DNA of 50,750 nt. Source: Planctomycetota bacterium (GTDB lineage: Bacteria > Planctomycetota > Planctomycetia > Pirellulales > Thermoguttaceae). Both the position numbers and the translations under genes were made by a program. Each line of letters starts with the position of its first letter. Position 1 is the stretch's first letter. This document shows, piece after piece, positions 6,786 through 46,913 of this stretch. A model generated the notes under the pieces. That model did no database searches and was not told where the DNA came from. It worked only from the letters and a program-made list of their open reading frames with translations. The stretch spans positions 1 to 50,750 of the forward strand of contig JAJYGU010000390.1 of NCBI GenBank assembly GCA_021784975.1. The letters run 5' to 3'.

Positions 6786-7158
6786 CAAAGCACCTCTCAA
6801 CACCTGGGACCTCTTTCTTCCTTTATTCTAATTCGAGATTTGCCGACTGCGGCCACCGCACCCATCTTACTGGTGGATGCCTGGCTCGGAGTATTCACCA
6901 CGGAGGAGGCCGAGGACGCAAGCGGGGATTTGCGACAAGAAATTGACTATTCCAAGCGGCGCAGGGCGTTTCGTTGCATGTTGGGAATCTCTGTTTTCCT
7001 CTGCGTCTCTTACGTCCTCCGCGGTTCCAGAATGATCTGGTCTGGGGCATACCACGATTGGTGATTCGCCCTCCGCCTTTCCTATCGCACCCCACGATTG
7101 GGGAATCGCCTCATTGCGGCCAATGCGTTATAGTGCTCGCGGGAGAAAATGAATGATC

Positions 7159-7249
7159 GTAACCCGAAGCGTAAGCGAGGGTCGTGAGTTGTTGCCTCGC
7201 TTACGCTTCGGGTTACGTGAGTTGTCCCCTCGCTTACGCTTCGGGTTAC
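7159..7249. repeat. 22-bp hairpin arm present three times (one inverted pair plus one direct copy)
   Basis: gtaacccgaagcgtaagcgagg (7159-7180) is the exact reverse complement of cctcgcttacgcttcgggttac. That sequence occurs at 7195-7216 and again at 7228-7249, each time preceded by gtgagttgt. Confidence 0.8.
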
Positions 7250-7328
7250 GATGTCCGTCGCGGCAAAAGTCCCATTTTCGCCCGCGAATAGCATAGTTGG
7301 AAGAAGTTGGAGGAAAGGAGGAGTTATC

Positions 7329-8381: not shown

Positions 8382-10730
8382 TTACTTGATGGGCCGCAGG
8401 GGGCTTTGGCTGAGAACGAACCGTTTGCGGCCGGTTGGGGGGCCGAAGTCGACGGTGGCCTTGCGGGCTTGTCCGGCGCCGCTGAGGGCCGCTACGCGGC
8501 CCAGGCCGAGCGTCGGATGGCGGACCAACATGCCTTGCCGAAAGGCGTTGGGGTCGGTCGGCGGCGCGGCCGCGCCGCCGTTGGCCAACTCGGCCGCCGT
8601 GGTCAGCCGGAAAGAGGGCGGGGTTGGCGCCGCCTGCTTGGCCACCGCCGAACCGCTATGGGCGATGCCGATTTGTAAACCAGTTGGCCCGTTGAAATCC
8701 GGACCGGGAAGTTGAGAACTCATCGGCGATGCCAGCGTGGCCGCTTCTTCGGGCCGCACTTGGCTGAAAGGATCGCTGGCATAGACCTGGCCAACTACCT
8801 GCTCGCCGCCGGCATAGCTCACGTCCATTTCGTGGCGCGGCAGTTCCATCAGAAACGAGCTGGGGATGGCGTTGGTCCGCTGCCCGCGATAGTCGCGATG
8901 GATGGCGTGGCTGATTTGCAGCTCCTGCTGGGCGCGGGTAATGCCGACGAACATCAGCCGGCGTTCCTCTTCGAGCTGCTCGGGATGCTGGCGGCTGCGT
9001 TCGTGCGGAAGCAGGCCCTCTTCCACGGCGGCGAGATAGACGACCGGGAACTCCAGACCTTTCGAGGCGTGCAGAGTCATCAGGGTCACGCGGTCGGCAT
9101 TGACCTCCCAGGCGTCGGTGTCATTGATCAGACAGGTCTCCTCCAAAAAGGCCTCCAGTTGGCCGGCGCCGCCGCTGCGCTCGTCGAACTCGCGGGCGAC
9201 AGTGAGCAGCTCTTCGATGTTCGCCAGCCGCTCCTGGTCTTCCTCGTTGTCCGACTGGCGGAGCATCTCGTGATAGCCGCTTTCGCTCAACACGAAACCC
9301 AGCGTTTCCTCCATCGGGCCGCCCAGCGAGGCCACCAGCCGATCGAACAAGTCGACGAACTGCCGCAATTTGGCAGCGATCCGCGGGCTGATTCCCTCAA
9401 TTTCGCCTGCCTGGCGGGCCGCATCCAGCATCGTCCGGCCGCGCCGGGCGGCGTAGTCGGAGAGCCGGCCGACGGTGGTCTTGCCGATGCCGCGGGGCGG
9501 GGTGTTGATGACCCGCAGCAGGGCGACCTCGTCGTGCGGATTGTTCAGCAGGTGCAGATAGGCCAAAACGTCCTTGATTTCCTTGCGTTGGAAGAACTCC
9601 AGGCCGTTGACCATCTGGTAGGGCACGCCGAACTCGCGCAAGGCGAACTCGAAGGCCCGGCTCAAGGCGTTGACGCGATAGAAGACGGCGAAATCGCTGG
9701 GGCGGCGGCGGCCCGAGCGGATGGCGGCGGCGATCTGGGCGGCGATGCCGTTGGCCTCGTCGTGCTGGGTGGCGTAGGTGGCCAGCCGCACCGGCTCGCC
9801 CAGCCCGTTCTCGGTAAACAGGCCTTTTTCCTTGCGGCGGAGGTTGTAGCCGATCAGTTCCGAGGCCACCCGCAGGATGCGCTGGGTGCTGCGGTAGTTG
9901 CGCTCCAGCCGCACCACCCGGACCTCGGGAAAATCCCGCTCGAACTCCAAAATGTTGTTCAGATTCGCTCCCCGCCAGCCGTAGATCGACTGGTCGGGGT
10001 CGCCGGTGACGGCCAGGTTCGGGCAATCGATCGAAAGTGCGCGGGCAATGGCGTACTGGGCCAGGTTGGTGTCCTGATATTCATCGACCAGGATGAAGCG
10101 ATAGCGCTGGTCAAGGGCCGCGCGGACCTCGGGGTTTTCACGCAGCAGAGTGGCCACGTGCAGCAGCAGATCGTCGAAATCGGCGGCGTTCGAGGCGAGA
10201 AGCTGCGATTGATACTGCGGATAGACCTGCTGGACGGCCAATCCGATCGCGCTGCCGGGCCGAGGCTGATAATCGGCGGGCGAGATCAGGTTGTTCTTGG
10301 CCCAGCTTATGGCTTTGGCCAGCGTGTCCGGGGTGAATCGCTCGCTGTCGAGCCTTGCATGAGAGATGGCCCGGCGGAGGGCCTGGGCGCTGTCGGCCAC
10401 GTCGTAGATCGTGTAGTTTTCCTGAAGCCCGACCAGCGGCGCGTACTTCCGCAACAATCGTGCGCAGAAACGGTGGAACGTCCCGACCCACACACCGGAG
10501 GGTTCGGCCAGTTCCTCGATCCGACGAGCCATTTCGTCGGCGGCCTTGTTGGTGAACGTCAGAGCGAGGACCTGATGGCCCGGTATGCCGTTGGCCAGTA
10601 GCCAGGCGACGCGATGCGTTACCACGCGGGTCTTGCCGCTGCCGGGGCCGGCGAGGATCAGCAGCGGCCCCTCGATATGGGTGACCGCCTCGCGCTGGGC
10701 ATCGGTGAGTCCGTTCAAGAGCTGTTCCAA
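8382..10730 (-). CDS. UvrD/PcrA/Rep-family ATP-dependent DNA helicase
   Basis: Walker A AGPGSGKT, motif II ILVDEYQDTN, and further superfamily 1A motifs. The open frame runs up to 10994, but that stretch crosses a palindromic repeat. I prefer TTG at 10730 (GAAGGA 6 nt upstream, TATACT box at 10784-10789). ATG at 10865 is an alternative. Confidence 0.9.
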   Translation of the reverse strand: MEQLLNGLTDAQREAVTHIEGPLLILAGPGSGKTRVVTHRVAWLLANGIPGHQVLALTFTNKAADEMARRIEELAEPSGVWVGTFHRFCARLLRKYAPLVGLQENYTIYDVADSAQALRRAISHARLDSERFTPDTLAKAISWAKNNLISPADYQPRPGSAIGLAVQQVYPQYQSQLLASNAADFDDLLLHVATLLRENPEVRAALDQRYRFILVDEYQDTNLAQYAIARALSIDCPNLAVTGDPDQSIYGWRGANLNNILEFERDFPEVRVVRLERNYRSTQRILRVASELIGYNLRRKEKGLFTENGLGEPVRLATYATQHDEANGIAAQIAAAIRSGRRRPSDFAVFYRVNALSRAFEFALREFGVPYQMVNGLEFFQRKEIKDVLAYLHLLNNPHDEVALLRVINTPPRGIGKTTVGRLSDYAARRGRTMLDAARQAGEIEGISPRIAAKLRQFVDLFDRLVASLGGPMEETLGFVLSESGYHEMLRQSDNEEDQERLANIEELLTVAREFDERSGGAGQLEAFLEETCLINDTDAWEVNADRVTLMTLHASKGLEFPVVYLAAVEEGLLPHERSRQHPEQLEEERRLMFVGITRAQQELQISHAIHRDYRGQRTNAIPSSFLMELPRHEMDVSYAGGEQVVGQVYASDPFSQVRPEEAATLASPMSSQLPGPDFNGPTGLQIGIAHSGSAVAKQAAPTPPSFRLTTAAELANGGAAAPPTDPNAFRQGMLVRHPTLGLGRVAALSGAGQARKATVDFGPPTGRKRFVLSQSPLRPIK

Positions 10731-10851
10731 TGGTAGTCCTTCGATCTGATTGCACCGGGGCGGGTGAGTCCAACTAGTGTAACAGTATATGGGATTTGGG
10801 GCGGCGGGCGAGAGACGGGGCGCGAGGTCGGAGGGGGGAGGCTGGTCCAAG

Positions 10852-10903
10852 GGGGACCGTCCCATTCTTGTGGCGTCCTGCCACAAAAATCGGGACAGTC
10901 CCC
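10852..10903. repeat. Palindromic double-GGGACNGTCCC element, copy 1 (intergenic, in a divergent promoter region)
   Basis: ggggaccgtcccattcttgtggc-gtcct-gccacaaaaatcgggacagtcccc, with 11-bp palindromic boxes at 10853-10863 and 10892-10902. Confidence 0.85.
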
Positions 10904-10976
10904 GCCCCCTACTCACCATTATTTGAATTGTGTTATACTGACTCGTTAGTGTTCGGACCGTTTCTGAAAGGGCAAG

Positions 10977-11306
10977 ATGGTCCGTCGATCTCACCCCCTA
11001 GCTGGGAGGGAACCCATGGGCACGCGGATTCCGCTTCAGACTACCGATGCCAAGGCGAAAGAGCTGGCCGACAAGCTGGAAATGAGCACCGCCGAGATTG
11101 GTCTTTCCGTCCGGACGACCAATTGTCTGGAAGAGCGAGGGATTTTCACGGTCGACGACCTGCTGCACTGTACCCGCGAAGAGTTGCTGAGCATCTCCAA
11201 CTTCGGCGAAAAGACGTTGGAAGAGGTCTACAAATCGCTGGAAGGCATCGGCTTCCATCGTCGAGCGGGGAGCGAGTCGAGCGGCCCTCCCCCGCAACCT
11301 CGCTGA
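10977..11306 (+). CDS. Standalone RNA polymerase alpha-subunit C-terminal-domain (alpha-CTD, HhH) protein
   Basis: LSVRTTNCLEERGIFTVDDLLHCTREELLSISNFGEKTLEEVYKSL matches the RpoA CTD helix-hairpin-helix signature. The alternative ATG at 11016 has a better GGGAGGG site. Confidence 0.8.
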   Translation: MVRRSHPLAGREPMGTRIPLQTTDAKAKELADKLEMSTAEIGLSVRTTNCLEERGIFTVDDLLHCTREELLSISNFGEKTLEEVYKSLEGIGFHRRAGSESSGPPPQPR

Positions 11307-20399: not shown

Positions 20400-20576
20400 T
20401 GTGCTCTCCTGGAAAACGAGGAACCGGCACCGCCATGCGTCGCGCCCCTCGCCCGTGAACAAGCAAGAGTTCTTTGGAGTGCGGCAATCTATTGCCGTTT
20501 TTCCGGCGTTTTTTGCAGCTTAGGCGGCACGCGGGGTTCACCTGAAAAGAGAGTTTCGCAAGCTTCTCCGCGGCCC

Positions 20577-20600
20577 AGAAAAGCGGTGATGAATCACCGC
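20577..20600 (-). terminator. Intrinsic terminator downstream of the ThuA-like gene
   Basis: On the minus strand, GCGGTGAT-TC-ATCACCGC is followed by TTTTCT, 13 nt after the stop at 20613. Confidence 0.5.
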
Positions 20601-20612
20601 ATTCCAAAATCG

Positions 20613-28880: not shown

Positions 28881-28988
28881 ACCTTGCGGACGCAACCTGC
28901 GGCTTCTACCTTGGAGTTGGCGCATGCCGTGGCTCAGACTTCGGTAACTAAGGGGTGCAAGTCTTCGTCAATAAGCGCTCCGGTCCCC

Positions 28989-29882
28989 CTATCTCGCACG
29001 CAATTGCGCCAGCGTGCCCAGCCCGTAGTAGGTGTACTCTACGTCGGCGGCGTCGTCGCCGGGGCAGGCCAGGAAACCTCCGCCGCTTTGGCTGGTTTCG
29101 CGCACGAATCGGGCTGTGCCCGGCATGTCGACGGTATCGAGTCCGTCGAGGGCGGCTAGTGTTGTCAGGCCGGTGAAGGTGGAGAGCAGGTCGCCGGTCG
29201 GCGCGCCGGCGTGGGCCTTCAGGCCGCCGTCAGGGCTTTGCACACTGCTAAGAAAGCCGATCACCTGGGTGCGGTGACTGGAACACAGCGCATCGCGCAT
29301 AGTCAAGAAGGCGACGGCCGCGGCCGTGGCGTTGGTCTGCGACGCCGGCTGGCCGTCTAGTTCGGCAAAGCCGCCGTCGGCCCGACCGAGTGCCTCCACC
29401 GCCTGGATCGCGCCGTCGACGCCCGGCATGGGCTCGCCCAGCATCTGAAAGCACAGCGCCCCGAAAAACGTATAGTAGGCGCTCGTGCGCGAATCGCCGG
29501 GCCACCGAGTTAGCCCCCCGCCGGGCAGCAAATACCCGCGAAGCACCTCCAACACGCCCTGCCGGTCGAGCGACACTCGACCCGCTCCCAACGTGCGACC
29601 CACATTCAGGAGGCTGAATGCGTCCACGAGGTTTCGGGGGCAGCCGGTGTGCCGGCCCAGATAGTTTGTTGCCCGGTCGAAGGCCGGATCGTCGGGCGCC
29701 AGAATCGCGAGGCTCCGCAGGGCGAAGTCGGTATAGTACAGGTCGCTGCCGCCTTGGCGACCGCGAAATCCGCCGTCGGACTGCTGGCACTCCGTCACGA
29801 AGCGGACCTGGGCGCCGACAAATTCATCGCTCAAGCCTTGCAGACCGAGGCGGATCGCCTCATCCAGCAGATCGAGATACAT
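28989..29882 (-). CDS. Prenyltransferase/squalene-oxidase-repeat (alpha-alpha toroid) protein
   Basis: Repeated Q..DGGF / DGGL motifs (QQSDGGFRGRQGGSDLYYT, GRADGGFAE, QSPDGGLKA, SQSGGGFLACPGDDADVEYTYY). ATG lies 4 nt after the upstream stop. Confidence 0.8.
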   Translation of the reverse strand: MYLDLLDEAIRLGLQGLSDEFVGAQVRFVTECQQSDGGFRGRQGGSDLYYTDFALRSLAILAPDDPAFDRATNYLGRHTGCPRNLVDAFSLLNVGRTLGAGRVSLDRQGVLEVLRGYLLPGGGLTRWPGDSRTSAYYTFFGALCFQMLGEPMPGVDGAIQAVEALGRADGGFAELDGQPASQTNATAAAVAFLTMRDALCSSHRTQVIGFLSSVQSPDGGLKAHAGAPTGDLLSTFTGLTTLAALDGLDTVDMPGTARFVRETSQSGGGFLACPGDDAADVEYTYYGLGTLAQLRAR

Positions 29883-29886
29883 GCGT

Positions 29887-31683
29887 TCATTCCTGCAGAA
29901 TCATCCGCACGAAGAACTGCATCAGTTCTTGCAGGTCGGGCGTAGGAAACTCGGCGGCGGCGGCCAGGGCGCGGTCGCGCAACCTCGCGTACAACTGCTC
30001 AACCTTCGCCAGCGCGCCCGATTCGCAGTAGACCTGGTACACCTGGTCGAGCAACTCGTCGCTGGTCGAGTTCTCCATCAGCTCGGCCAGTTGCGCCAAC
30101 CGCGGTCCATGCCCGCCTTCCGTCGCGAAAATGTGCAACAGAGTGACACGGCCGGCGCGGGCGTCGAGGCCGCGATGCCGCTTGTTGTGTTGGTCTTCTT
30201 GCCAGTCATCGAGGTCGTTACGAACCTGGAACCCTTCGCCGAGATAGGTGGCAAAGCGGCGGAGGATCGTCGGGTCGACGTCCGCTTGGGCCGCCCGCAG
30301 CCCCGCATAGAGGGCCGCCTCGAAGGCCGGGGCCGTCTTCTGCGCGGCGGCCTGCATTGCTTGGGCCGCCGCATAGGGCGGCCGGTGATCCTGGCTTTGC
30401 AGTTCGGCTCCCTGCCCGCGGCACAGTTCCAAGTGGGCGCGCGAAAGCCGGTCGAGAATATCGCCACTGCAATCGGCCCCCAGCGGCACGCTTTGCCCGG
30501 CAATCAGCCGGTAGCCCAGGCCGATGAGGAAATCGCCGACGTTGATGGTCTGGGCCACGCCGTGAATGCGGTGCAGCGTGGGAAGGCCGTAGCGGTAGTG
30601 GTCGTTGTCTTCGATATCGTCGTGGACCAGCGAGGCCTTGTGCAAGGCTTCAATGGCTAAGGCGATGCGGCGGACCGCCACTGGCAGTCGCTCCGCCAGA
30701 TCGCTGCCCGGGTCCGCCTGCTCCAGAACGCCGGTTCCGTGTTTGGCCACCGCATAGGCTGCCAGGGTCACGAACGGCCGCAAGCGTTTGCCGCCCTCTT
30801 GGAGCCATTGCAAGGCTATCTCTTGAACCGTTGGCCCCAAGGGGGGCCGTCCCATTTCCACAGCCTCCTGCCGCGAAAATTGGGACAGTCCCCGTGAACC
30901 GTTACCAAGCTGCCCGGCTAATTCGGCAACCTCGATATAAGGCGCGAGCAGCTCGGCGAACGTCGGCTGGCGAAACATCCGACCGGTCTCGCGGAGCAGA
31001 CCGAGGTAGCTCCGCCGCGAGGTCGGCGTCAAGACCGCCGTCGGCGCGGACTGCGCCGCCAAGAGACTGCGAATCTGGCCGATTTCCGCTTCGGTGTCCT
31101 TGCAACCGTCTCTCAGCAACGGTACGGCGACGTGCGGGATGCCGAGCTCGACGACGCGTTGGAAGGATCGCTCCAGGGAATCGAGGCAGGCGACGCCGAG
31201 GATCGCATCCGCGTCCCCTTCCAACACGCGAAAAAGAACCGACGAGGTGCCTTCCGCCACGATCACCGAGTAGCCCAACTGCTCGGCTTCGGCCTTCAAG
31301 GCGTGGATCTCGCAACTGCCGCAGCCGGCGCAGTGCAGGCCCACGGAATCATAGCTGCCCGCGCACGCGGTCTGGTCGCGCAAGCAATGCGGCAGCAGGA
31401 ACAACCGGCGATGAAGGGCGACAGTCTCGAAGATCGGCAGCCAGAATTCGTTGCTGACCGCTACCATGGTGAAACCAAGTAGAGTCCGCGGCAGCTCCAA
31501 CCGCTGCAAAATCTCCTTGCCGATTTGCTCCAATCCCTCCCGCGACATGGGACGCGAGCGGTCCAGCCCGGCCGCTGCTCGGGCCGCGGCCGAGCGAATC
31601 GCCTGCCGCAGGGTGGCGCTTTCAGGAACGCGCTTGATCTCGTCGTGGCGGCGGTGAGCGGCTTTCAGAGGCTTAGAGGTCAT
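29887..31683 (-). CDS. Fusion protein: DUF116-like Cys-rich domain plus trans-polyprenyl diphosphate synthase domain
   Basis: ATG at 31683 overlaps the cyclase TGA (ATGA). The N-terminal half has LFLLPHCL...CAGCGSCEI...GYSVIVAEGTS...GVAC (DUF116 pattern). The C-terminal half has GKRLRP, LVHDDIEDND (first Asp-rich motif) and FQVRNDLDDW (variant second motif). The track's longer ORF to 32319 is an artefactual extension. Confidence 0.8.
   Translation of the reverse strand: MTSKPLKAAHRRHDEIKRVPESATLRQAIRSAAARAAAGLDRSRPMSREGLEQIGKEILQRLELPRTLLGFTMVAVSNEFWLPIFETVALHRRLFLLPHCLRDQTACAGSYDSVGLHCAGCGSCEIHALKAEAEQLGYSVIVAEGTSSVLFRVLEGDADAILGVACLDSLERSFQRVVELGIPHVAVPLLRDGCKDTEAEIGQIRSLLAAQSAPTAVLTPTSRRSYLGLLRETGRMFRQPTFAELLAPYIEVAELAGQLGNGSRGLSQFSRQEAVEMGRPPLGPTVQEIALQWLQEGGKRLRPFVTLAAYAVAKHGTGVLEQADPGSDLAERLPVAVRRIALAIEALHKASLVHDDIEDNDHYRYGLPTLHRIHGVAQTINVGDFLIGLGYRLIAGQSVPLGADCSGDILDRLSRAHLELCRGQGAELQSQDHRPPYAAAQAMQAAAQKTAPAFEAALYAGLRAAQADVDPTILRRFATYLGEGFQVRNDLDDWQEDQHNKRHRGLDARAGRVTLLHIFATEGGHGPRLAQLAELMENSTSDELLDQVYQVYCESGALAKVEQLYARLRDRALAAAAEFPTPDLQELMQFFVRMILQE
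30843..30893. repeat. Palindromic GGGACNGTCCC element, copy 2 (degenerate left box), inside the DUF116-synthase ORF
   Basis: ggggccgtcccatttccacagcctcctgccgcgaaaattgggacagtcccc is 51 nt long. It is read through in frame as ...GNGSRGLSQFSRQEAVEMGRPPLG... about 15 codons before GKRLRP. Confidence 0.75.
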
Positions 31684-33044
31684 CTGCGGGTTGCTCTGCC
31701 AAGGGCCTCGATCGTCCAGATCAGCGGATACAGCCGTTCCGAGTACCAAAGCCGGGAAAAATACAGGCCGATGGCCGCCGGCCGGTCGCACCCCTGGCGG
31801 ACGTTTGCCACCAGGTACTTCACTCCTCGCGACACGCAGTGGCCGGCCGCCGGATTTTGCGGCCAACCGGCCAGGGCCGCCACGGCCAGCGCCGTCTCCT
31901 CGACCGATGACGCAATGCCGGTGGAGCCGCCCCAGCCGCCGTCGGCGTTTTGCGCGCGGCACAGATATTCTACGCCACCGGCCGCCTGGGCACCATTGCC
32001 GTCGACGATTTCCAAGGCCCGGAGCACCAATGAGGTGCCAATCACCGGATTGTGCTGACCCGGTGCGGCCTGGTTGCCAAACCAGAGCGGCAGCCAAGAG
32101 CCATCGGACTCTTGGACGCGGCCCAGATAGTCCCCTCCGCGGCGGAGTGCGCGCCGCAGCCGGGCGGTCGATACGCGGTGCGTAGAAGGGGACAGTCCCA
32201 TTTTTGCGGCATCCTGCCACAAAAATTGGGACCGTCCCCGGCGGTTGATACCACCCAGGGCGCGGAGCACGTGGGCCGTCACATCCGGGGCGCTGCGGTC
32301 GAAGAGGAGCTTTCCCCATCCACGGCAGAAGGTCGGCCAGCCGCCGTCGCGGTTTTGCAAGTTAAGCAGCCAGTTTACGCCGGCAACGGCGCCGGCGTGG
32401 TGCCCCAGTTCCGCCAGCGCGATCAGGGCCCCGGCCGTGTCATCCGCGTCGGGCACCCCGCCCGGCAGATGCGTCCATGCCCAGGCGCCCGCCGCCGCCT
32501 GCGTGTAGGGGTGCGCGGAGGCCGTTTGTCGAGCGGCGACCCATGGGCCGGTCGTAGGGCAATCAAGTTGTCCTAGCGATCCGGCCGCCGCCAGCGCGGT
32601 AACCGCCGATGTGGTCAGCCATACCGCCAGGTTCGTGTCGATCGGCCAACTGCCGTCGGCCCGCTGCGATTGGCGAAGGAATTGCAGGCAGCGGGCGGCT
32701 ACCGGCTGTTCCGGTCCGAATGACGAAACCAGGCCCATGGCGACGAAGCTGGTTAGCGGGGCCGCATCCAGGAATCCGCCATGTTCCGGCTGAATCTGCT
32801 GAAGCTTCGCCAAGGCCCGCGGCGTCGTCGCTCGCCGTAACGCGCGCAGCAAGCCACTGTGGGGCGGACCATGGTGGTGGATTGCCAGGCCAATGGCAAT
32901 CAGGGCCGGCAGGGCATAGCTGACCACGTGGAGCCGGAGCAGTCTATAGCACCAAGGCGGCAGCACCGACAACTCGAAGGGCAGGCCGGGAACCTCCGGC
33001 CAAGAAACCAACCCGGCCAGGGCGCAGTTCATCAAGATCGGCAC
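31680..33044 (-). CDS. Class II terpene cyclase (squalene-hopene-cyclase-like), C-terminal about 75 percent; same frame as 33066-33488
   Basis: DxDDTA catalytic motif (VPDADDTAG) and QW-like repeats QRADGSWP, QNRDGGWPTF, QESDGSWLPLWFGN, QNADGGWGG. The track start is a GTG with no SD, 21 nt after an in-frame TAG. Confidence 0.8.
   Translation of the reverse strand: MPILMNCALAGLVSWPEVPGLPFELSVLPPWCYRLLRLHVVSYALPALIAIGLAIHHHGPPHSGLLRALRRATTPRALAKLQQIQPEHGGFLDAAPLTSFVAMGLVSSFGPEQPVAARCLQFLRQSQRADGSWPIDTNLAVWLTTSAVTALAAAGSLGQLDCPTTGPWVAARQTASAHPYTQAAAGAWAWTHLPGGVPDADDTAGALIALAELGHHAGAVAGVNWLLNLQNRDGGWPTFCRGWGKLLFDRSAPDVTAHVLRALGGINRRGRSQFLWQDAAKMGLSPSTHRVSTARLRRALRRGGDYLGRVQESDGSWLPLWFGNQAAPGQHNPVIGTSLVLRALEIVDGNGAQAAGGVEYLCRAQNADGGWGGSTGIASSVEETALAVAALAGWPQNPAAGHCVSRGVKYLVANVRQGCDRPAAIGLYFSRLWYSERLYPLIWTIEALGRATRR
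32188..32239. repeat. Palindromic GGGACNGTCCC element, copy 3, inside the cyclase ORF
   Basis: ggggacagtcccatttttgcggcatcctgccacaaaaattgggaccgtcccc. It is translated in frame as ...RRGRSQFLWQDAAKMGLSPS..., between a DVTAHVLRAL helix and the next QW repeat. Confidence 0.85.
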
Positions 33045-33065
33045 CGCAAACGTGCGATCGGCGCC

Positions 33066-33488
33066 CTAGGCGCGTTGAATTGCACAGGCAATCTCGCGGG
33101 CCGAAAGGGGAGAAGCACACTTGCACTGTGTGACCACGTACTCTTCGGCCCCCAGCTTCATGTCTGGCGCGGATGGGATGCGGAGCGCGCCTGCCAACCT
33201 CAAGGCGGCGAGGGCCAACAGCGTGGTCGCCAGGTTGCTGGGGCTATCAGTCGTGTCGCCCCAACCGCCGTCGGCGTTCTGATGCGCGGCCAGCCAGGCT
33301 ACGCCACTGCGGACGCCTTCGCGGTCGCTGTCCACTTTGGCCAGGGCGAGCGCGCTGATGGCGGTCGCGGTCGAAAGCGCCGACGAAGAAAGCTCCCCCT
33401 CCCAAAAGCCCTCGGGCCGCCGCGCCTCGATCAGCCGGCCGCAGAGGAATTGAAGCGTGTCGGCCATGACCGCCTGGAAGGTCAGCAT
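33066..33488 (-). CDS. Class II terpene cyclase, N-terminal fragment, ending at an in-frame TAG
   Basis: MLTFQAVMADTLQFLCGRLIEARRPEGFWEGEL and AAHQNADGGWGDT resemble the SHC N-terminus. ATG at 33488 lies 30 nt after the radical SAM stop. Longer starts (33590, 33653) would overlap that gene. Confidence 0.6.
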   Translation of the reverse strand: MLTFQAVMADTLQFLCGRLIEARRPEGFWEGELSSSALSTATAISALALAKVDSDREGVRSGVAWLAAHQNADGGWGDTTDSPSNLATTLLALAALRLAGALRIPSAPDMKLGAEEYVVTQCKCASPLSAREIACAIQRA

Positions 33489-33517
33489 TTCGGACGCATT
33501 TGCGTTGGCAGGCGTGG

Positions 33518-35020
33518 TCAAGTTCGCGCCCTCCAGGCATGCCAGGCCAACAAGAACTTCCACTGCAAGATCTGGCCGCGACCCAGACATTGCAAGGCGA
33601 CGCGACGGAACCGCGGTACGCCCGCCGCCTGCTGGTTGTCGGCGTAGATCCAAGGCACCCAGCGAAAATTGAGTCGGTAGCAGGTCCTTATCAACGACCA
33701 GTGTAGCGGCCGCAGGCGCCGCCGGTCGATCGGCGCCGCGCCATCGACCGGGGCAAAGAGCAAGGGAAAAACAGCGATCCGCTCCTTGCTCAGGCTGCGC
33801 ACCCAGTCCAGCGTCTCCACGAGGTGTTCGTCGCCTTCGCCGGGCAGGCCGATCATGAGGCTGACCATCGGAAAGAAGCCGGCCCGGCAGAGCCGCCGCA
33901 CCTGTTCGGCGCAGAAGGCGCCCCAGTCGCCGGCTTGGCGGCCGTGCATCTTGGCCGCCCCGCCGATCTTCCGGAGCAAGTCGCCTGAGGCGGTTTCCAC
34001 GCCCAAGTTGACCCAGACGCGGCGATCGAGGTCGCGGCCCACGAGCAGATCGTGCAACGCGGCAAGCTGCCGATCGTCATACTGAGCGACGCTCGACACG
34101 TTGGCATGATCCAGTTGAATGAGCCGCACCCGCGAGAGCTGTCGAATCCTCTGAAGCAAAGAAATCAGTGCGTCGGGCCGGGCGTTGAGACCCTCGGCGC
34201 CGTAGCGGAAGAAATCCTCGCTCAAGACGGCCACATTGTGCAAGCCGGCGCTAAGGTTCGTATCGACATCGGCTATTACCGTCTCTGGCGGAAGATGGAC
34301 CATTGGCACCCGGGCGATGGTGCAATACGAGCAGCCCAGCCCGCAGCCCCGGCTGATCTCCACCGCGCCCATGGTGGTGGCGCCGCGGATCGGAGGAATT
34401 GGTGCCGCCGCATGCCAGCCGCCTTCGATCACTTCCGGGGTTGGGTTTTTTTGCACTAGCCGGCGGAAGGCGGCCGCCACCTTTTCTTCCGCATAGCCGG
34501 TCAGCAGATGATCGATGCCCAACGCCTTGCGCTCGGCGGGGCGGCCGGCAAGCTGCCAGGCCCCCGGTCCGCCCAACACCACCGCGGCCGAGGTGCGCCG
34601 GCGGAGCCGCCGCACTTTGCGCATCAGGCGGCGAAACATCGCCTGCGGGTAAATCCGCCCGCCGGCCACGGCGGTCATGGTCGAGCTGTTCATGCCCAAG
34701 CCCGCCGGCTCGCCGGAGGAGATGCCGATCACGCGGGTCGCCGGCCCGATGGCGTAGTCGAGTTGATCGTCGCGGACTACGGCCACCTCTTCCGCCGTGA
34801 ATCCATCGGCCAGCAAGGCGGCTTCGACGCGTCGCAATCCCAGCGGGGCCAGGCTGGCCCGATCTGCCGCCCCGCGGGGACGCGGCATCAGCAGGCCCGC
34901 GAACAGTGCCGGCGGGGCGGTGGTGGTCTGGCTGGCGGCCAACATCCCGTCGAACAACAGCCGGTAATCCGCCGTCAGCGTTCGGTCGGCCGTCAGGACG
35001 ATCGGGAAGCCGTGGAACAT
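33518..35020 (-). CDS. Radical SAM enzyme with an N-terminal B12-binding-like domain
   Basis: CxxxCxxC cluster motif in AVEISRGCGLGCSYCTIARVP. The N-terminal roughly 200 aa look like a Rossmann-type domain. ATG lies 6 nt after the ferredoxin-gene stop. Confidence 0.9.
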   Translation of the reverse strand: MFHGFPIVLTADRTLTADYRLLFDGMLAASQTTTAPPALFAGLLMPRPRGAADRASLAPLGLRRVEAALLADGFTAEEVAVVRDDQLDYAIGPATRVIGISSGEPAGLGMNSSTMTAVAGGRIYPQAMFRRLMRKVRRLRRRTSAAVVLGGPGAWQLAGRPAERKALGIDHLLTGYAEEKVAAAFRRLVQKNPTPEVIEGGWHAAAPIPPIRGATTMGAVEISRGCGLGCSYCTIARVPMVHLPPETVIADVDTNLSAGLHNVAVLSEDFFRYGAEGLNARPDALISLLQRIRQLSRVRLIQLDHANVSSVAQYDDRQLAALHDLLVGRDLDRRVWVNLGVETASGDLLRKIGGAAKMHGRQAGDWGAFCAEQVRRLCRAGFFPMVSLMIGLPGEGDEHLVETLDWVRSLSKERIAVFPLLFAPVDGAAPIDRRRLRPLHWSLIRTCYRLNFRWVPWIYADNQQAAGVPRFRRVALQCLGRGQILQWKFLLAWHAWRART

Positions 35021-35026
35021 GGCCGA

Positions 35027-35992
35027 TCAGCCTCTCCGCTGCATGGCTCGGTCGAGCTGATCCACCAGATCGTCGAGATCGCTGAAGGCCCGCCGCTGGG
35101 CGGATTCGCCGGACTCCTTCGGAGGCGTGTGGGTCATGGCTTCACGCCCCGCGGGCGGGCGGGCGGATTGCGTTAGCTCCGCCAGCGGGCAGCCACATTC
35201 AGGACAGGCGCCGTTGCCCGCCACCGCCGCCCGCGACTTCTTGGCGACCTTTTGGCCGCAGGCCGGACAGGGCCGGCCGGTGCGGGAGTAGAACATCCGG
35301 CGGGCGGCGGCATCGAGGGCCACCAACTTGCCCGGCGCTCCGGCAATGGCCGCGTCCTTCTCATAGAGCGGAAACATAAGGGCGCTTTGCGGGCAGATAC
35401 GTGCGCAGGCCGGACAGCCCGGCTTGCACTGGTCCGGTTGCCGGACCTGGACCTTCCCATCTCCGTCCAACTCGTACACGCCGAATAGACAGAACTGCAA
35501 ACAATGCTGACAGTTGGTGCACCGCGACTGGTCGACCACCGGGTACCAGCGCGGCTTGGTCGGGGCTCGCAATTCTACCAATCGCCCGGCGTCAAAGGGG
35601 GCAGTCCCAGTTTCGCGGCGGTCAACCGCGTGAGTACGGCTAGATCGCTGGCGCCGCGAGAATGGGGATAGTCCCCCGGCCGCGGCGAAGGCCGACTTGG
35701 CGTCGGCAAACGTGCGGAGATCGAGAATGTGCGATTCGGCGAGGTGAATCTGGTGCCGATGTAAGAGCCAGCTCACCGCCCGCGGATGCAACCATCCGAG
35801 CAAGACTGCCTGCTCCACGCCGTCCGCCAATGCCTTCCAGAGCTTGCTCGACTCAGCCAGGTGATACAGCGGCGGCACGACAAGACAATCGACATCCTCG
35901 GCCCCACATCGTTCGATGATGTCCTGCTCGAGCGCGACCGTCCGCGCATCGGGATGCTCGTGCTTCGAGAGAATGATCCGGTTGGGGCGCAT
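35027..35992 (-). CDS. Two-domain protein: unknown N-terminal domain plus 2x[4Fe-4S] ferredoxin domain and a C-terminal CxxC...CxxC tail
   Basis: ATG at 35992. Cluster motifs CTNCQHCLQFC and CKPGCPACARICP, then CPACGQK...CPECGC near the C-terminus. Confidence 0.8.
   Translation of the reverse strand: MRPNRIILSKHEHPDARTVALEQDIIERCGAEDVDCLVVPPLYHLAESSKLWKALADGVEQAVLLGWLHPRAVSWLLHRHQIHLAESHILDLRTFADAKSAFAAAGGLSPFSRRQRSSRTHAVDRRETGTAPFDAGRLVELRAPTKPRWYPVVDQSRCTNCQHCLQFCLFGVYELDGDGKVQVRQPDQCKPGCPACARICPQSALMFPLYEKDAAIAGAPGKLVALDAAARRMFYSRTGRPCPACGQKVAKKSRAAVAGNGACPECGCPLAELTQSARPPAGREAMTHTPPKESGESAQRRAFSDLDDLVDQLDRAMQRRG
35597..35675. repeat. Degenerate palindromic GGGACNGTCCC-type element, copy 7, inside the ferredoxin ORF
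   Basis: ggggcagtcccagtttcgcggcg ... gccgcgagaatggggatagtcccc. It is translated in frame as ...GGLSPFSRRQRSSRTHAVDRRETGTAPF... and links the two domains. Confidence 0.5.
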
Positions 35993-36024
35993 GGAAAGGG
36001 GGTTCCGTGGCGATGGCGAGCAGT

Positions 36025-36915
36025 TCACTCGACTCGGCTGGGGAAAATCGCCTTGAGATACTTGCGGTTGGCAACGTAATCCACCATCAGCCCGTGCGGA
36101 GCGGCGGCTTCGAGCTGAATCCAGCCGCTGTAGTGGATGTCATCAAGCGCCTTGCGGACCTGGCGGAAGTCGATCCGGCCTTGGCCGAGCAGGTAGCCGG
36201 CGTCTTTGGCGTGGAATTCGCAGATCAGCGGCCCGAGCGTGCGGATCTCCTTGAGGATGTCGCGGCCCTTGTCGGTCGAGTTGCCCACGTCGTAGTAGAC
36301 CTTGACGGCCGGGGAGCCGACACGATCGATGATCCGCATGTTGTCCTCGGCGCTCAAGTAATCCTCGATGCCAATCCGCACCCCTTGTTTTTCCGCCTTG
36401 GGGGCCACGTCTTTCAGCACTCCCACCAGGTGGTCGATCTCGGCAGTGCGGCGCAAGTCGAGGTCGCCCGCGTAAAAGCAGGCCGGCATGACGACCGTCA
36501 GCCCGAGGGCCGTGCAGACGTCGATGCTGTCGGCCAACCACCGGGCTGCCCGCGGATCGCGTTTCAGCGGCACGCTGTTCATCTCGCCGATGGCCAGCGA
36601 AGCGATCTGAAGGCCGGTCCGTTTGGCGGCCTCGCGGTAGCTCTGCTGCACATCGGGGCGCCGCAGGTGCATGTTGTTGCCGACCGACCCCATTTCGACC
36701 TGCACGCCATCGAGCCCGAGGGCCTTGGCGACATCGAAGGCCGCTGTGTCACCGCGTTTGCCCAGCGACCAGTCGCAGGCCCCGATTTTAAAGCCACGCG
36801 ACTGCGGGGCGGCCAGGAGCGGTTCGAGGCCGCCCGCCGCCGCGGCAAAGGCGGCTGCCTGGGCTGAGCGGATAAGCATGGCGCGGCGGGTCAATTGAGG
36901 GCGTGTCGGTTTCAT
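36025..36915 (-). CDS. Sugar phosphate isomerase/epimerase (xylose-isomerase-like TIM barrel) with a Tat signal
   Basis: ATG at 36915. N-terminus MKPTRPQLTRRAMLIRSAQAAAFAAAAGG. AP-endonuclease-2/TIM-barrel-like body. Confidence 0.85.
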   Translation of the reverse strand: MKPTRPQLTRRAMLIRSAQAAAFAAAAGGLEPLLAAPQSRGFKIGACDWSLGKRGDTAAFDVAKALGLDGVQVEMGSVGNNMHLRRPDVQQSYREAAKRTGLQIASLAIGEMNSVPLKRDPRAARWLADSIDVCTALGLTVVMPACFYAGDLDLRRTAEIDHLVGVLKDVAPKAEKQGVRIGIEDYLSAEDNMRIIDRVGSPAVKVYYDVGNSTDKGRDILKEIRTLGPLICEFHAKDAGYLLGQGRIDFRQVRKALDDIHYSGWIQLEAAAPHGLMVDYVANRKYLKAIFPSRVE

Positions 36916-36954
36916 GGCAGACTCCAATTGGGGACTTCTCACAATATCCAGCCG

Positions 36955-36994
36955 CCCTCACCCCTAGCCCCTCTCCCGCACGCGGGAGAGGGGA
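36955..36994. repeat. CCCTCACCC-TAGCC...hairpin element, copy 1 (intergenic, terminator-like)
   Basis: ccctcacccctagcccctctcccgcacgcgggagagggga. The stem is cccctctcccg / cgggagagggg (36968-36978 / 36983-36993). Confidence 0.55.
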
Positions 36995-37003
36995 ATTCGT
37001 CAT

Positions 37004-40647: not shown

Positions 40648-40718
40648 GGGGGACAGTCCCATTTTTGTGGCCGGGCACCGTGCGAAGCATGGTCGCCACA
40701 AAAATCGGGACAGTCCCC
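40648..40718. repeat. Palindromic GGGACNGTCCC element, copy 4 (long-loop variant, intergenic)
   Basis: gggggacagtcccatttttgtggc-[24-nt loop]-gccacaaaaatcgggacagtcccc, with boxes at 40650-40660 and 40707-40717. Confidence 0.85.
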
Positions 40719-40939
40719 GCTTTCCGCTGAATCCCAGCCACGCTTCGGCCGATAACCCGAAATGGACCTGCCGGGAGGGCGGGGCACGCTGTGTCCCGTT
40801 TCAGGATTCGAGATCATGGCGACCATGGATCGGCTGCCATGATCTTTTCTATGGCTTGCGACGGAAAGCGAATCCGACGTTCTTCGCGGACGACGGTCGG
40901 TGTCTCCTCAGGCCGTTGCGCGTATCGTTTGCCGGCCGC

Positions 40940-43040: not shown

Positions 43041-43202
43041 CCGGATTCATCATCGCTGTCCCTTGTAAGGCAAGCATCGGGCAGATATGATTCTTGCGCG
43101 TTTAAGGGAGGATGGAGTCCCTCTGAAATCGCCGGCGTTCCGGCTGATGACTCCTACCAGGGCGAATCATCCCTCGGTGGGGGCCAAGGGGCGAATTAGG
43201 TG

Positions 43203-43237: not shown

Positions 43238-43330
43238 CGAATGGGCTAGCAGCAGTAGTCGGAAATCGGCGGCCAGGGAGGCCCGTGCCCACGCCCGCGA
43301 AAGCTCCGCAGATAGTAGCCGACGATGCTA

Positions 43331-43430
43331 AGCGGCCGTCCAAGAACAAGTTGGGGACTGTCCCAATTTTCGTCCGACGAAAATGGGACTGTCCCCTTGG
43401 CGAAAGTGGAAGTTGTTGCTGGACGGCCGC
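43331..43430 (+). mobile_element. 100-bp MITE-like palindromic element, copy A (contains two GGGACTGTCCC boxes)
   Basis: It is the exact reverse complement of 46788-46887. The internal palindrome is ggggactgtcccaattttcgtc/gacgaaaatgggactgtcccc. The near-palindromic outer ends are gcggccgtccaagaacaa / ttgttgctggacggccgc. Confidence 0.85.
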
Positions 43431-43504
43431 TAACTCCGCTGCACAAGAACGTCCTGCTTACCGGTTTTCTGGACGTTGAGAACCGGCTGAAGCAAATGGT
43501 CAAA

Positions 43505-43672: not shown

Positions 43673-43829
43673 TTGAGTTCTCCTTTCGGGCGAAAACCAC
43701 TCGGCTGCCAACTCACGATCCCTGCGGCATCGGTGAGTACCGCGTGCCCCGGGATTAACATGACCGTGAGAATTGTATGCCCACGCACAGACCGGTCAAC
43801 GCGCCTGGCCCCTGAACGCGCAGACATTT

Positions 43830-43859
43830 GGAGTGCGGTGATTTATCACCGCTTTTCTG
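43830..43859 (+). repeat. GGAGTGCGGTGAT..ATCACCGCTTTTCTG hairpin element (one of three related copies)
   Basis: Stem 43835-43842 / 43845-43852 plus TTTT. Related copies occur at 20479-20502 (plus orientation) and 20575-20604 (minus orientation). Confidence 0.6.
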
Positions 43860-43980
43860 AACCGGCGGAAAGATTGCTATACGATTTTTAGGTGAACCTC
43901 GACTGGCGCCCGTGTTGCGGAGAACGCCGGAAAAGCGGCAACAAATTGCCGACTCCAAAGAAAGCTCGCTTGTTTAAGGC

Positions 43981-44664
43981 CTAGCGGCCCAGAACGCCTA
44001 CCAGGCCCTCGACGACGTGGTTCGGCAGCGGGGCCGAGCGTAGCAGTTCGGCGGTGCGGCCCACGTCGTAAGGGATCCGTTTCAGGTGCATCTGGCCATC
44101 GCGAAATACCGCGTAACAGGCTTGGCCGTGAATATCGCGGGCCAGGCCGACGCTGCCGGGATTGACCACCGTCCGCTTGCCGAACGTCCGTATGCCTTGG
44201 ACGTGGGTGTGGCCCAGAAGCACAAAGTCGCCGTCCAACTCCGCGACTCGCGAGCCCCACTGGTCCATGCTGAGATATTCAAACAGATCGCCCTGCGGAG
44301 TCGCGTGGGCCATGCGGAAGTGCCGCCCCTCCCATTGAAAAAGGTCCACCACCTGCATGGTGCGCAAGAATTCGCATTCGTCGTCGCTCAACAGCGTGCG
44401 GTGCCAGGCGCGAGTGGCCAGCGAATACTCGCGGAAAGTTCCCATGCAGCGGCAGTCCACCCCGTAGCCCAAGGCGTTGTCGTGGTTTCCCCGGACAAGG
44501 TGGTCGGCGTTTTCTCTCAGCCAGCGGAGACATTCCGCCGGCTGCGGCCCGTAATCAACCACGTCCCCGCAGAATACCACTGCATCGTGTTCGGGCTCGG
44601 CTGCCAGCACCGCCTCCAGGGCTGGCCAGTTGCCGTGGATGTCGGACAAAATCAACAAGGTCAT
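43981..44664 (-). CDS. Metallophosphoesterase (YfcE/MJ0936-like)
   Basis: Motifs LSDIHGN, CGDVVDYG, GNHD, GHTH. Its ATG overlaps the MFS stop (ATGA at 44661-44664). Confidence 0.9.
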   Translation of the reverse strand: MTLLILSDIHGNWPALEAVLAAEPEHDAVVFCGDVVDYGPQPAECLRWLRENADHLVRGNHDNALGYGVDCRCMGTFREYSLATRAWHRTLLSDDECEFLRTMQVVDLFQWEGRHFRMAHATPQGDLFEYLSMDQWGSRVAELDGDFVLLGHTHVQGIRTFGKRTVVNPGSVGLARDIHGQACYAVFRDGQMHLKRIPYDVGRTAELLRSAPLPNHVVEGLVGVLGR

Positions 44665-46269: not shown

Positions 46270-46812
46270 TCACTCGCCGTGCAGCAGCCTTTCCCGCGGG
46301 AACATTCCATTGATCCACGCCAGTAGCAGCCCCTGCGGAGTCTGCAAGGTGAGCGTCGGCCGGTAGGGATGGTCGAGGCCGGCACGCTCCAGTCGCCCGG
46401 CCAACTCCTCATAGATGCCGGCGATGAACTTCTCCTGTTGCTCCGCGCCGAGCTCGCCCCAGCCTGCACCGGTGGTGAGAATCACCGGTAGACGCGGCTC
46501 TTGTTGGTAAACTCCGACGCCGTAGGGCAGAAGGGTTTGGGCGACCGGCAGGACCTCGGTGCGGCTGAACAGCGGACGGCCTTTAGGGCTCCTGTTGGCG
46601 GTCTGCACCCAACGCTGGAATTCCTCTGCGACGCGAAGCAGCTTAGGCTCGCTGATGACCGAACGAAGGTATGCCGGCGGAAGGCTTTCCGGCTGGCCTT
46701 CCGGAACATTCGGAGAAGGCTGGCCGCAACCGGACAAGATCACCAACATCAGGCCCGCAACGGCTGCCTGCTTCGCAACGCTCCTGAGCGGCCGTCCAGC
46801 AACAACTTCCAC
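46270..46812 (-). CDS. Lipoprotein of unknown function
   Basis: Lipobox LSGC. GTG at 46812 (inside the element copy) gives MEVVAGRPLRSVAKQAAVAGLMLVILSGC. The only in-frame ATG (46749) leaves an 8-aa signal, which is too short. Confidence 0.5.
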   Translation of the reverse strand: MEVVAGRPLRSVAKQAAVAGLMLVILSGCGQPSPNVPEGQPESLPPAYLRSVISEPKLLRVAEEFQRWVQTANRSPKGRPLFSRTEVLPVAQTLLPYGVGVYQQEPRLPVILTTGAGWGELGAEQQEKFIAGIYEELAGRLERAGLDHPYRPTLTLQTPQGLLLAWINGMFPRERLLHGE

Positions 46813-46887
46813 TTTCGCCAAGGGGACAGTCCCATTTTCGTCGGACGAAAATTGGGACAGTCCCCAACTTGTTCTTGGACGGCCGCT
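46788..46887 (-). mobile_element. 100-bp MITE-like palindromic element, copy B
   Basis: It is the exact reverse complement of 43331-43430. It lies between two co-directional genes of the efflux operon. Confidence 0.85.
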
Positions 46888-46913
46888 AAGCACTGTTGGC
46901 TGGGGCATGCTAT

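Follow-up and report, generated by a model that had tools for sequence, protein, structure and literature searches.

A conserved operon and the repeat copies within it

The window, which is the whole 50,750-nucleotide stretch of Planctomycetota DNA analyzed here (contig JAJYGU010000390.1, positions 1 to 50,750), has a G+C content of 62-67%, and its closest relatives are metagenome-assembled genomes (MAGs) of Thermoguttaceae and Pirellulales. Its minus strand carries a five-gene operon (28989-36028) that encodes a ferredoxin protein, a radical SAM protein, a class II cyclase, a DUF116::polyprenyl synthase fusion, and a prenyltransferase-like protein, and a short palindromic repeat lies within three of these genes. 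We consider that the three copies are very probably derivatives of a miniature inverted-repeat transposable element (MITE) that landed at tolerant sites of three genes of a conserved operon and are translated as a gain of 14-21 residues.

All five operon genes lie on the minus strand. The two-domain ferredoxin-type protein is encoded at 35027-35992 (321 aa as called in sibling assemblies), next to the element-free radical SAM gene (33518-35020), which served as the synteny anchor. The gene at 31680-33653 encodes a squalene-hopene-cyclase-like class II terpene cyclase in which the DxDD motif is present and which is split by a TAG codon in the window assembly. The DUF116::polyprenyl synthase fusion gene (29887-31683; 598 aa, with both aspartate-rich motifs intact) overlaps the cyclase stop by 4 nt. 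In the 810-aa open reading frame (ORF) at 29887-32319, the initial 212 codons are an artefact, and the true gene (29887-31683) has the same length and sequence as a called product (P0121). The last gene of the operon, element-free in the window, encodes a prenyltransferase-like alpha-alpha toroid protein (28989-29882). We collected the operon from 80 genomes via the radical SAM protein, and searched each of the three element-bearing proteins against a large protein collection. The five-gene synteny was found in MAGs of four phyla, i.e., Planctomycetota, Armatimonadota, Verrucomicrobiota, and Acidobacteriota; in the more distant of the loci examined (L001-L030), the cyclase gene is shifted to the cluster end.

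The repeat was recognized by the pattern GGGACNGTCCC, which, allowing at most one mismatch, has 16 matches in the window vs. 3.4 expected, a number reached in none of 100 shuffles. Fourteen of the 16 matches pair into seven elements (10853-10902, 30843-30892, 32189-32238, 35598-35675, 40650-40717, 43354-43395, and 46823-46864) with the layout GGGGACNGTCCC-AATTTTTGTGGC-loop-GCCACAAAAAT-GGGACNGTCCCC, the left core being written (A/G)ATTTTTGTGGC. Copy 2 (30832-30894, minus strand), a palindrome at 30841-30894 with a short tail, lies in the linker that joins the DUF116 domain to the polyprenyl-synthase domain and is translated as RGLSQFSRQEAVEMGRPPLGP. Copy 3 (32178-32240, minus strand), a palindrome at 32187-32240 with the tail CTTCTACGCAC, occupies a variable cyclase loop that directly precedes a QW-type motif and is translated as RGRSQFLWQDAAKMGLSPSTH. 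Copy 7 (35596-35677, minus strand), a diverged long variant of ~80 nt, accounts for most of the segment that links the N-terminal domain of the ferredoxin protein to its 4Fe-4S dicluster domain, where it is translated as GGLSPFSRRQRSSRTHAVDRRETGTAPF.

An earlier note on this DNA had claimed that these copies lie inside ORFs without breaking the frame and give related peptides. The ORF translations bear this out, as all three copies are read through on the minus strand and yield RGLSQFSRQEAVEMGRPP (synthase residues 264-281), RGRSQFLWQDAAKMGLSP (cyclase), and GGLSPFSRRQRSSRTHAVDRRETGTAPF (ferredoxin protein residues 118-145). Its size for copy 2, 51 nt or 17 codons, agrees with the palindrome (50-54 nt) but understates the net gain over the nearest orthologues, which is 60 nt, or 20 codons.

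Orthologues, protein models and selection

Syntenic orthologues of the synthase (69), the cyclase (68), and the ferredoxin protein (29) were aligned with the window proteins. In all three alignments, the extra residues of the window fall exactly at the elements, in segments that are already length-variable and that are bounded by invariant columns (P248-V286 in the synthase, A444-G485 in the cyclase, and D109-R160 in the ferredoxin protein). Among the relatives that lack the elements, L081 and L082 (~79% nucleotide identity) are the nearest, together with L208. DNA alignment with L081 and L082 leaves one 60-nt gap at copy 2 and one 63-nt gap at copy 3, and the ferredoxin protein has a net gain of 42 nt (14 codons) in a linker that resists alignment. 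A gene boundary, i.e., a stop plus a start, does not occur at any of the three sites in the 69, 68, and 29 syntenic loci, respectively, where the element-free genes are continuous; likewise, PF01976 and PF00348 are both present in all of the best 120 listed homologues of the fusion protein. These comparisons support the view that the element copies are insertions and not ancestral sequence. Contigs of four other assemblies (L083-L087) are 99.9-100% identical to the window, have no indels, and contain the same copies, and none of the copies was seen to vary in presence or absence among these sibling assemblies.

Two of the three proteins, the synthase and the cyclase, were modelled with AlphaFold, and in both the insert is placed in a low-confidence segment. 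For the fusion protein, the AlphaFold2 (AF2) model reaches a mean predicted local distance difference test score (pLDDT) of 85.7, with the insert residues 264-283 in its least confident interdomain stretch, where block means are 54, 48, and 67 (range 48-67). For the cyclase, the model is that of the 450-aa C-terminal product (mean pLDDT 84.6), whose best PDB matches are the squalene-hopene cyclase structures 3sqc and 1sqc; the insert, at approximately residues 263-287 of this product, is predicted as an excursion with pLDDT 66-76 between helices at 96-97, before the QW-type motif. The landing sites, two interdomain linkers and one variable surface loop, thus vary among the orthologues, and those of the synthase and the cyclase are predicted to tolerate extra residues. 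In both the class II terpene cyclase and the DUF116::polyprenyl synthase fusion, the repeat marks sites at which the structure is permissive.

The codons flanking the elements are under purifying selection, as indicated by the ratios of nonsynonymous to synonymous substitution rates (dN/dS) computed against L081, L082, and L208, which are 0.17 and 0.16 for the synthase, 0.19 for the cyclase, and 0.30 for the ferredoxin protein.

Family anatomy, junctions and recurrence

A scan of public metagenomes by an exact 22-base match, which is biased towards undiverged copies, returned at least 120 stretches (loci L088-L207). Among the matches listed, the full-length unit is ~90 nt and consists of a ~50-nt palindrome at one end and a ~39-nt tail (consensus CTTCGGCAGAGCCATTGACACAAAAATCCGTACAGGCCC) that terminates in an inverted version of the left end: in full-length metagenome copies, the left end GGGACTGTCCCGATTTTTGTGGCAG and the reverse complement of the right end GGGCCTGTACGGATTTTTGTGTCAA are ~80% alike over 25 nt as judged by eye. 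The window copies retain the left end and its internal inverted copy. Perfect 8-bp direct repeats of varied sequence stand just outside the unit in 18 of the 58 listed copies (31%), vs. 0.9% of flank-swapped controls, and the tail of these 18 copies is 38-40 nt long in 17 and 27 nt long in one. Among the listed stretches, 34 of 43 perfect-duplication matches have a period (unit and duplication combined) of 98 nt, several registers per copy being counted. With its terminal inverted repeats, 8-bp target-site duplications, and small, non-coding, dispersed copies (seven in 50.7 kb), the family is a MITE by anatomy. The element tail in these loci also contains TTGACA, a -35-like hexamer. Neither the core motif nor MITEs of Planctomycetes led to a description of the family in the searchable literature, which shows only its absence there.

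Copies 2 and 3 are both flanked by direct repeats on the minus strand. Those of copy 2 (30824-30903) read AACGGTTCA at 30903-30895 and 30832-30824, match at 9/9 positions, and are 71 nt apart; those of copy 3 (32164-32251) read GTATCAACCGC (32251-32241) and GTATCGACCGC (32174-32164), match at 10/11 positions as GTATC(A/G)ACCGC, and are 77 nt apart. Repeats of such quality are met at random sites in 0.5% (9/9) and 0.6% (10/11) of cases (p ~0.005 each). Since the spacings of 71 and 77 nt differ from the net gains of 60 and 63 nt and are not multiples of three, a simple insertion would have shifted the frame. For the same reason we discarded a simple "element plus target duplication" excision, which would take out 71 or 77 nt and so disrupt the frame, and for which no clean footprint is shown. 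At copy 2, the 11 nt ACGGGCGCGTT of L081 are exactly the stretch missing in the window, and they are bounded by ACGG microhomology. These data fit an insertion that was followed by a loss at the upstream junction, so that a frame-breaking insertion of 71 or 77 nt would have been compensated by a loss of 11 or 14 nt, respectively. An in-frame state reached via insertion and a compensating microhomology deletion at the junction would be a lesser novel point of this case.

Taken together, we propose a non-autonomous element whose ~50-nt palindrome is formed by the left terminal inverted repeat and a second, inverted copy of this repeat inside the unit, and derivatives of which probably landed in the genes of the ferredoxin protein, the class II cyclase, and the DUF116::polyprenyl synthase. 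The canonical copies are stop-free in all six frames (copy 7 is open in only two of the six), and the net changes of 60, 63, and 42 nt are multiples of three; the genes would therefore stay open and the element would be translated. A canonical insertion of 98 nt shifts the reading frame, and most insertions would probably add this length, break the frame, and be lost, which could explain why few copies are found in genes. The copies that persist would be tolerated passengers filtered by selection.

A number of observations weigh against this interpretation. Passive tolerance alone does not explain why three of the seven window copies are in one operon, far above the in-gene rate of the family, which is 3/69 (~4%) among the listed metagenome copies when the GC content at third codon positions (GC3) is required to support the ORF on both sides of the copy, a rate that depends on the GC3 heuristic and on the scan biased to undiverged copies. 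Two of these three in-gene metagenome ORFs have Pfam domains (amidohydrolase and polysaccharide export protein), and the copy in the polysaccharide export gene has an atypical 96-nt period. The in-gene copies of the window have short or degenerate tails, with most of the right-hand tail missing; the repeats flanking copies 2 and 3 are longer than 8 bp, in addition to their discordant spacings; and the loss at the junction is reconstructed from relatives of only 79% identity. In neither the window nor the fetched loci did we find a transposase with matching ends, and the scanned window ORFs contain no transposase domain, RAYT-type (that of the tyrosine transposases linked to REP repeats) or other. 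End pairs 0.4-5 kb apart in all fetched loci consist only of neighboring 90-nt copies and the twin-repeat pair of the window, with no autonomous parent, so that the target duplications alone speak for mobility. Lastly, a stop-free state in six frames is seen in 1-3% of plain shuffles but is not unusual (8-32%) among palindromic shuffles, and we therefore do not claim selection for coding neutrality.

In other lineages, the operon genes contain independent copies, which occupy the same sites or different ones and lie in different frames. The synthase linker is occupied by GDSP...GTVPFF peptides in P0007, P0009, and P0011, the ferredoxin linker by KGTVPIFVPAKMGLSP in P0288, other loops of the cyclase in two loci (L002/P0198 and P0174), and the prenyltransferase-like gene in one (L006). 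The ferredoxin linker of P0245 may hold a decayed copy. In planctomycete annotations, the repeat yields spurious small ORFs and odd peptide motifs such as GTVPIF, GDSPIF, and KMGLSP. The same variable sites also contain other, unrelated-looking repeat-like inserts, namely the synthase linker in L053, L046, and L080, the cyclase loop in L006, and a synthase loop in P0003; these include RVCTAHQQPIGEEKVCDAHPTNY, ...SLALRASMGLL, and a 24-aa insert in P0003.

Four further copies lie outside the operon. One (10851-10904, minus strand) lies either in the 5' leader of a UvrD-type helicase ORF (8382-10994) or in an N-terminal extension of it, upstream of the helicase domain that starts at ORF residue 96; it has the orientation and frame of the operon copies and would give the peptide RGLSRFLWQDATRMGRSP. 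Another (40648-40719) is intergenic between convergent genes. The remaining two are short-type copies of 42 nt, one (43354-43395) enclosed in a 115-nt composite hairpin (43317-43431) and the other (46823-46864) in its inverted twin (46787-46901), which is 97% identical. The twin composites bracket a 3.36-kb segment whose minus-strand genes encode a 602-aa membrane protein without a Pfam match and a metallophosphoesterase. A fluoride riboswitch at 43099-43163 (plus strand) has no plus-strand gene downstream; an inversion across the 115-nt repeats would put the segment genes downstream of it, and the sibling L085 is oriented as the window. Except for this riboswitch, Rfam 15 has no match at gathering score in the window, and none at E<=1 in 30700-35800. 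A second repeat family of ~160 nt is represented by inverted copies at 20444-20608 and 43827-43988 (~78% alike), and a 33-nt tandem pair with a perfect 26-nt inverted repeat is present at 7156-7252.

Competing readings and known systems

An alternative that we regard as unlikely is that the copies are kept for a function, either as useful linker peptides or as strong mRNA hairpins, which would stall ribosomes where domains meet or influence how stable the polycistronic transcript is. The sense-strand RNA hairpins are indeed very stable (copy 2, -35.8 kcal/mol, z -6.0; copy 3, -42.5 kcal/mol, z -8.9; copy 7, -39.4 kcal/mol, z -3.9), two of the copies are located exactly at domain boundaries, and the same linkers have been colonized independently in other lineages; linkers, however, are simply where inserts are tolerated, and most orthologues have no insert at all. 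Copy 2 differs from the family consensus by seven transitions, five of them consecutive in the right arm (CCACAA to CTGTGG) and two in the left arm, and they keep pairing as G.U on the sense strand only (four G.U on the minus vs. one on the plus strand). We set this bias aside as a sign of RNA-level selection, as it belongs to the family consensus (14 vs. 0 G.U among 19 unique, non-independent sequences) and is hence inherited; a transcription-linked C-to-T bias would also yield the same pattern, and a polymorphism of copy 2 at 30846 breaks the canonical core, the sibling having the canonical base. The four gene-associated copies of the window (the three operon copies and that of the UvrD-type ORF) share one orientation and one frame, which copy 7 holds only through its first arm (p ~0.04-0.1). 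Since both orientations and all frames are seen among gene copies elsewhere, this is weak evidence for constraint. It is likewise doubtful, at a similarly low level of confidence, that the MITE family repeatedly seeds linkers and loops of this one operon with RNA hairpins, retained in copy 2 by the G.U-compatible transitions, that act as translation-pausing or transcript-stability elements at domain boundaries; if true, mobile DNA would supply both linker peptides and co-translational folding signals.

Even less probable is the alternative raised in the earlier note, that the operon is a decaying pseudogene cluster in which nothing but the scarcity of stop codons in 65% G+C DNA keeps the frames open across the elements. 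In its favor, long spurious ORFs exist locally, such as the 212 artefactual codons that precede the synthase gene, and an in-frame TAG codon (33068-33066, minus strand), which had been overlooked, splits the cyclase in the window assembly and replaces a Tyr that is invariant in 46 sequences. The claim that the operon frames stay open thus stands as far as the elements are concerned, and fails at this codon. The sibling contig L083, which is 99.9% identical and carries the same two elements, has TAC at the TAG site. It differs from the window at four positions, three of which alter the protein, a further point for decay, and two of which, at the TAG, are within 21 nt of each other. As judged from this sibling, the TAG is specific to the window assembly and may be a young allele or a consensus error, and it is unrelated to the elements. 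Decay is further opposed by the dN/dS of the synthase and the cyclase (0.16-0.19), close to the 0.13 of the element-free pair L081/L082, with that of the ferredoxin protein at 0.30; by the retention of catalytic and invariant residues; by the conservation of the five-gene synteny over four phyla; and by net insert lengths that are all multiples of three. Decay of the operon can therefore be mostly rejected.

Repetitive extragenic palindromic (REP) sequences and bacterial interspersed mosaic elements (BIMEs) have been found inside ORFs in several species, in many cases close to the N terminus or within genes for DNA repair (Di Nocera et al., 2013, PMC3733652), and similarly the window family consists of short, GC-rich, imperfect palindromes, some of them in ORFs; the UvrD-type gene, for instance, has one at its 5' end. 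REPs are characterized by a GTAG or CGTC tag, linkage to a REP-associated tyrosine transposase (RAYT), and the lack of a target duplication (PMC3733652), whereas the window family has ends that read (C/G)GGGGAC... and ...GTCCCC without such a tag, has 8-bp duplications, and is not accompanied by a RAYT-type domain in the scanned window ORFs. We thus find it most improbable that these are REP-type repeats handled by a RAYT, or transcription terminators, rather than MITEs: for terminators, one copy does lie between convergent genes, but no T-tract follows the stems (the tails are CCTTGG or CTTCTA) and none of the 11 terminator-like calls in 28900-37000 is on an element.

Bacterial MITEs are known within genes, including ERIC and box C elements (Delihas, 2007), Nezha, and Correia/NEMIS, and in-frame fusions with ORFs are described as "not unusual" (review PMC10969869). 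The window family resembles them in being small, non-coding, and present in many copies, with terminal inverted repeats, target-site duplications, and occasional in-frame ORF fusions. It differs from them in that the unit contains an internal, inverted duplicate of its left terminal repeat, giving a near-perfect 50-nt hairpin at one end, that the in-gene copies of the window lack most of the right-hand tail, and that no parent insertion sequence was found in the loci searched. A MITE family whose 98-nt insertion breaks the frame, and whose in-gene copies, as far as seen, are all length-adjusted derivatives located in linkers and surface loops, may be viewed as a natural experiment, the more so as the genes of one conserved operon have been struck independently in several lineages and in all frames.

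The earlier note had likened these copies to Rickettsia palindromic elements (RPEs), a likeness that we retain as a functional analogy of in-frame, translated palindromes at fold-compatible sites, without claiming family membership. According to the summaries in PMC10969869 and PMC3733652, RPEs are ~100-150 bp long, occur in an obligate intracellular alphaproteobacterium, and have nearly half of their copies in ORFs (Ogata et al., 2000, 2002). In contrast, the window element is a ~50-nt palindrome in a ~90-nt unit, belongs to free-living Planctomycetota, has 8-bp target duplications, and is in genes in only 3 of the 69 listed copies. In-frame insertion of palindromic repeats is already well known from RPEs, REPs in ORFs, and intragenic ERIC-type MITEs (PMC10969869, PMC3733652), and by analogy the window case appears to work alike. 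As with RPEs, repeated palindromic selfish DNA would be inserted in frame into unrelated functional genes and translated at positions compatible with the fold, and the window copies would thus extend this Rickettsia-type phenomenon, selfish palindromes translated in working genes, to free-living Planctomycetota.

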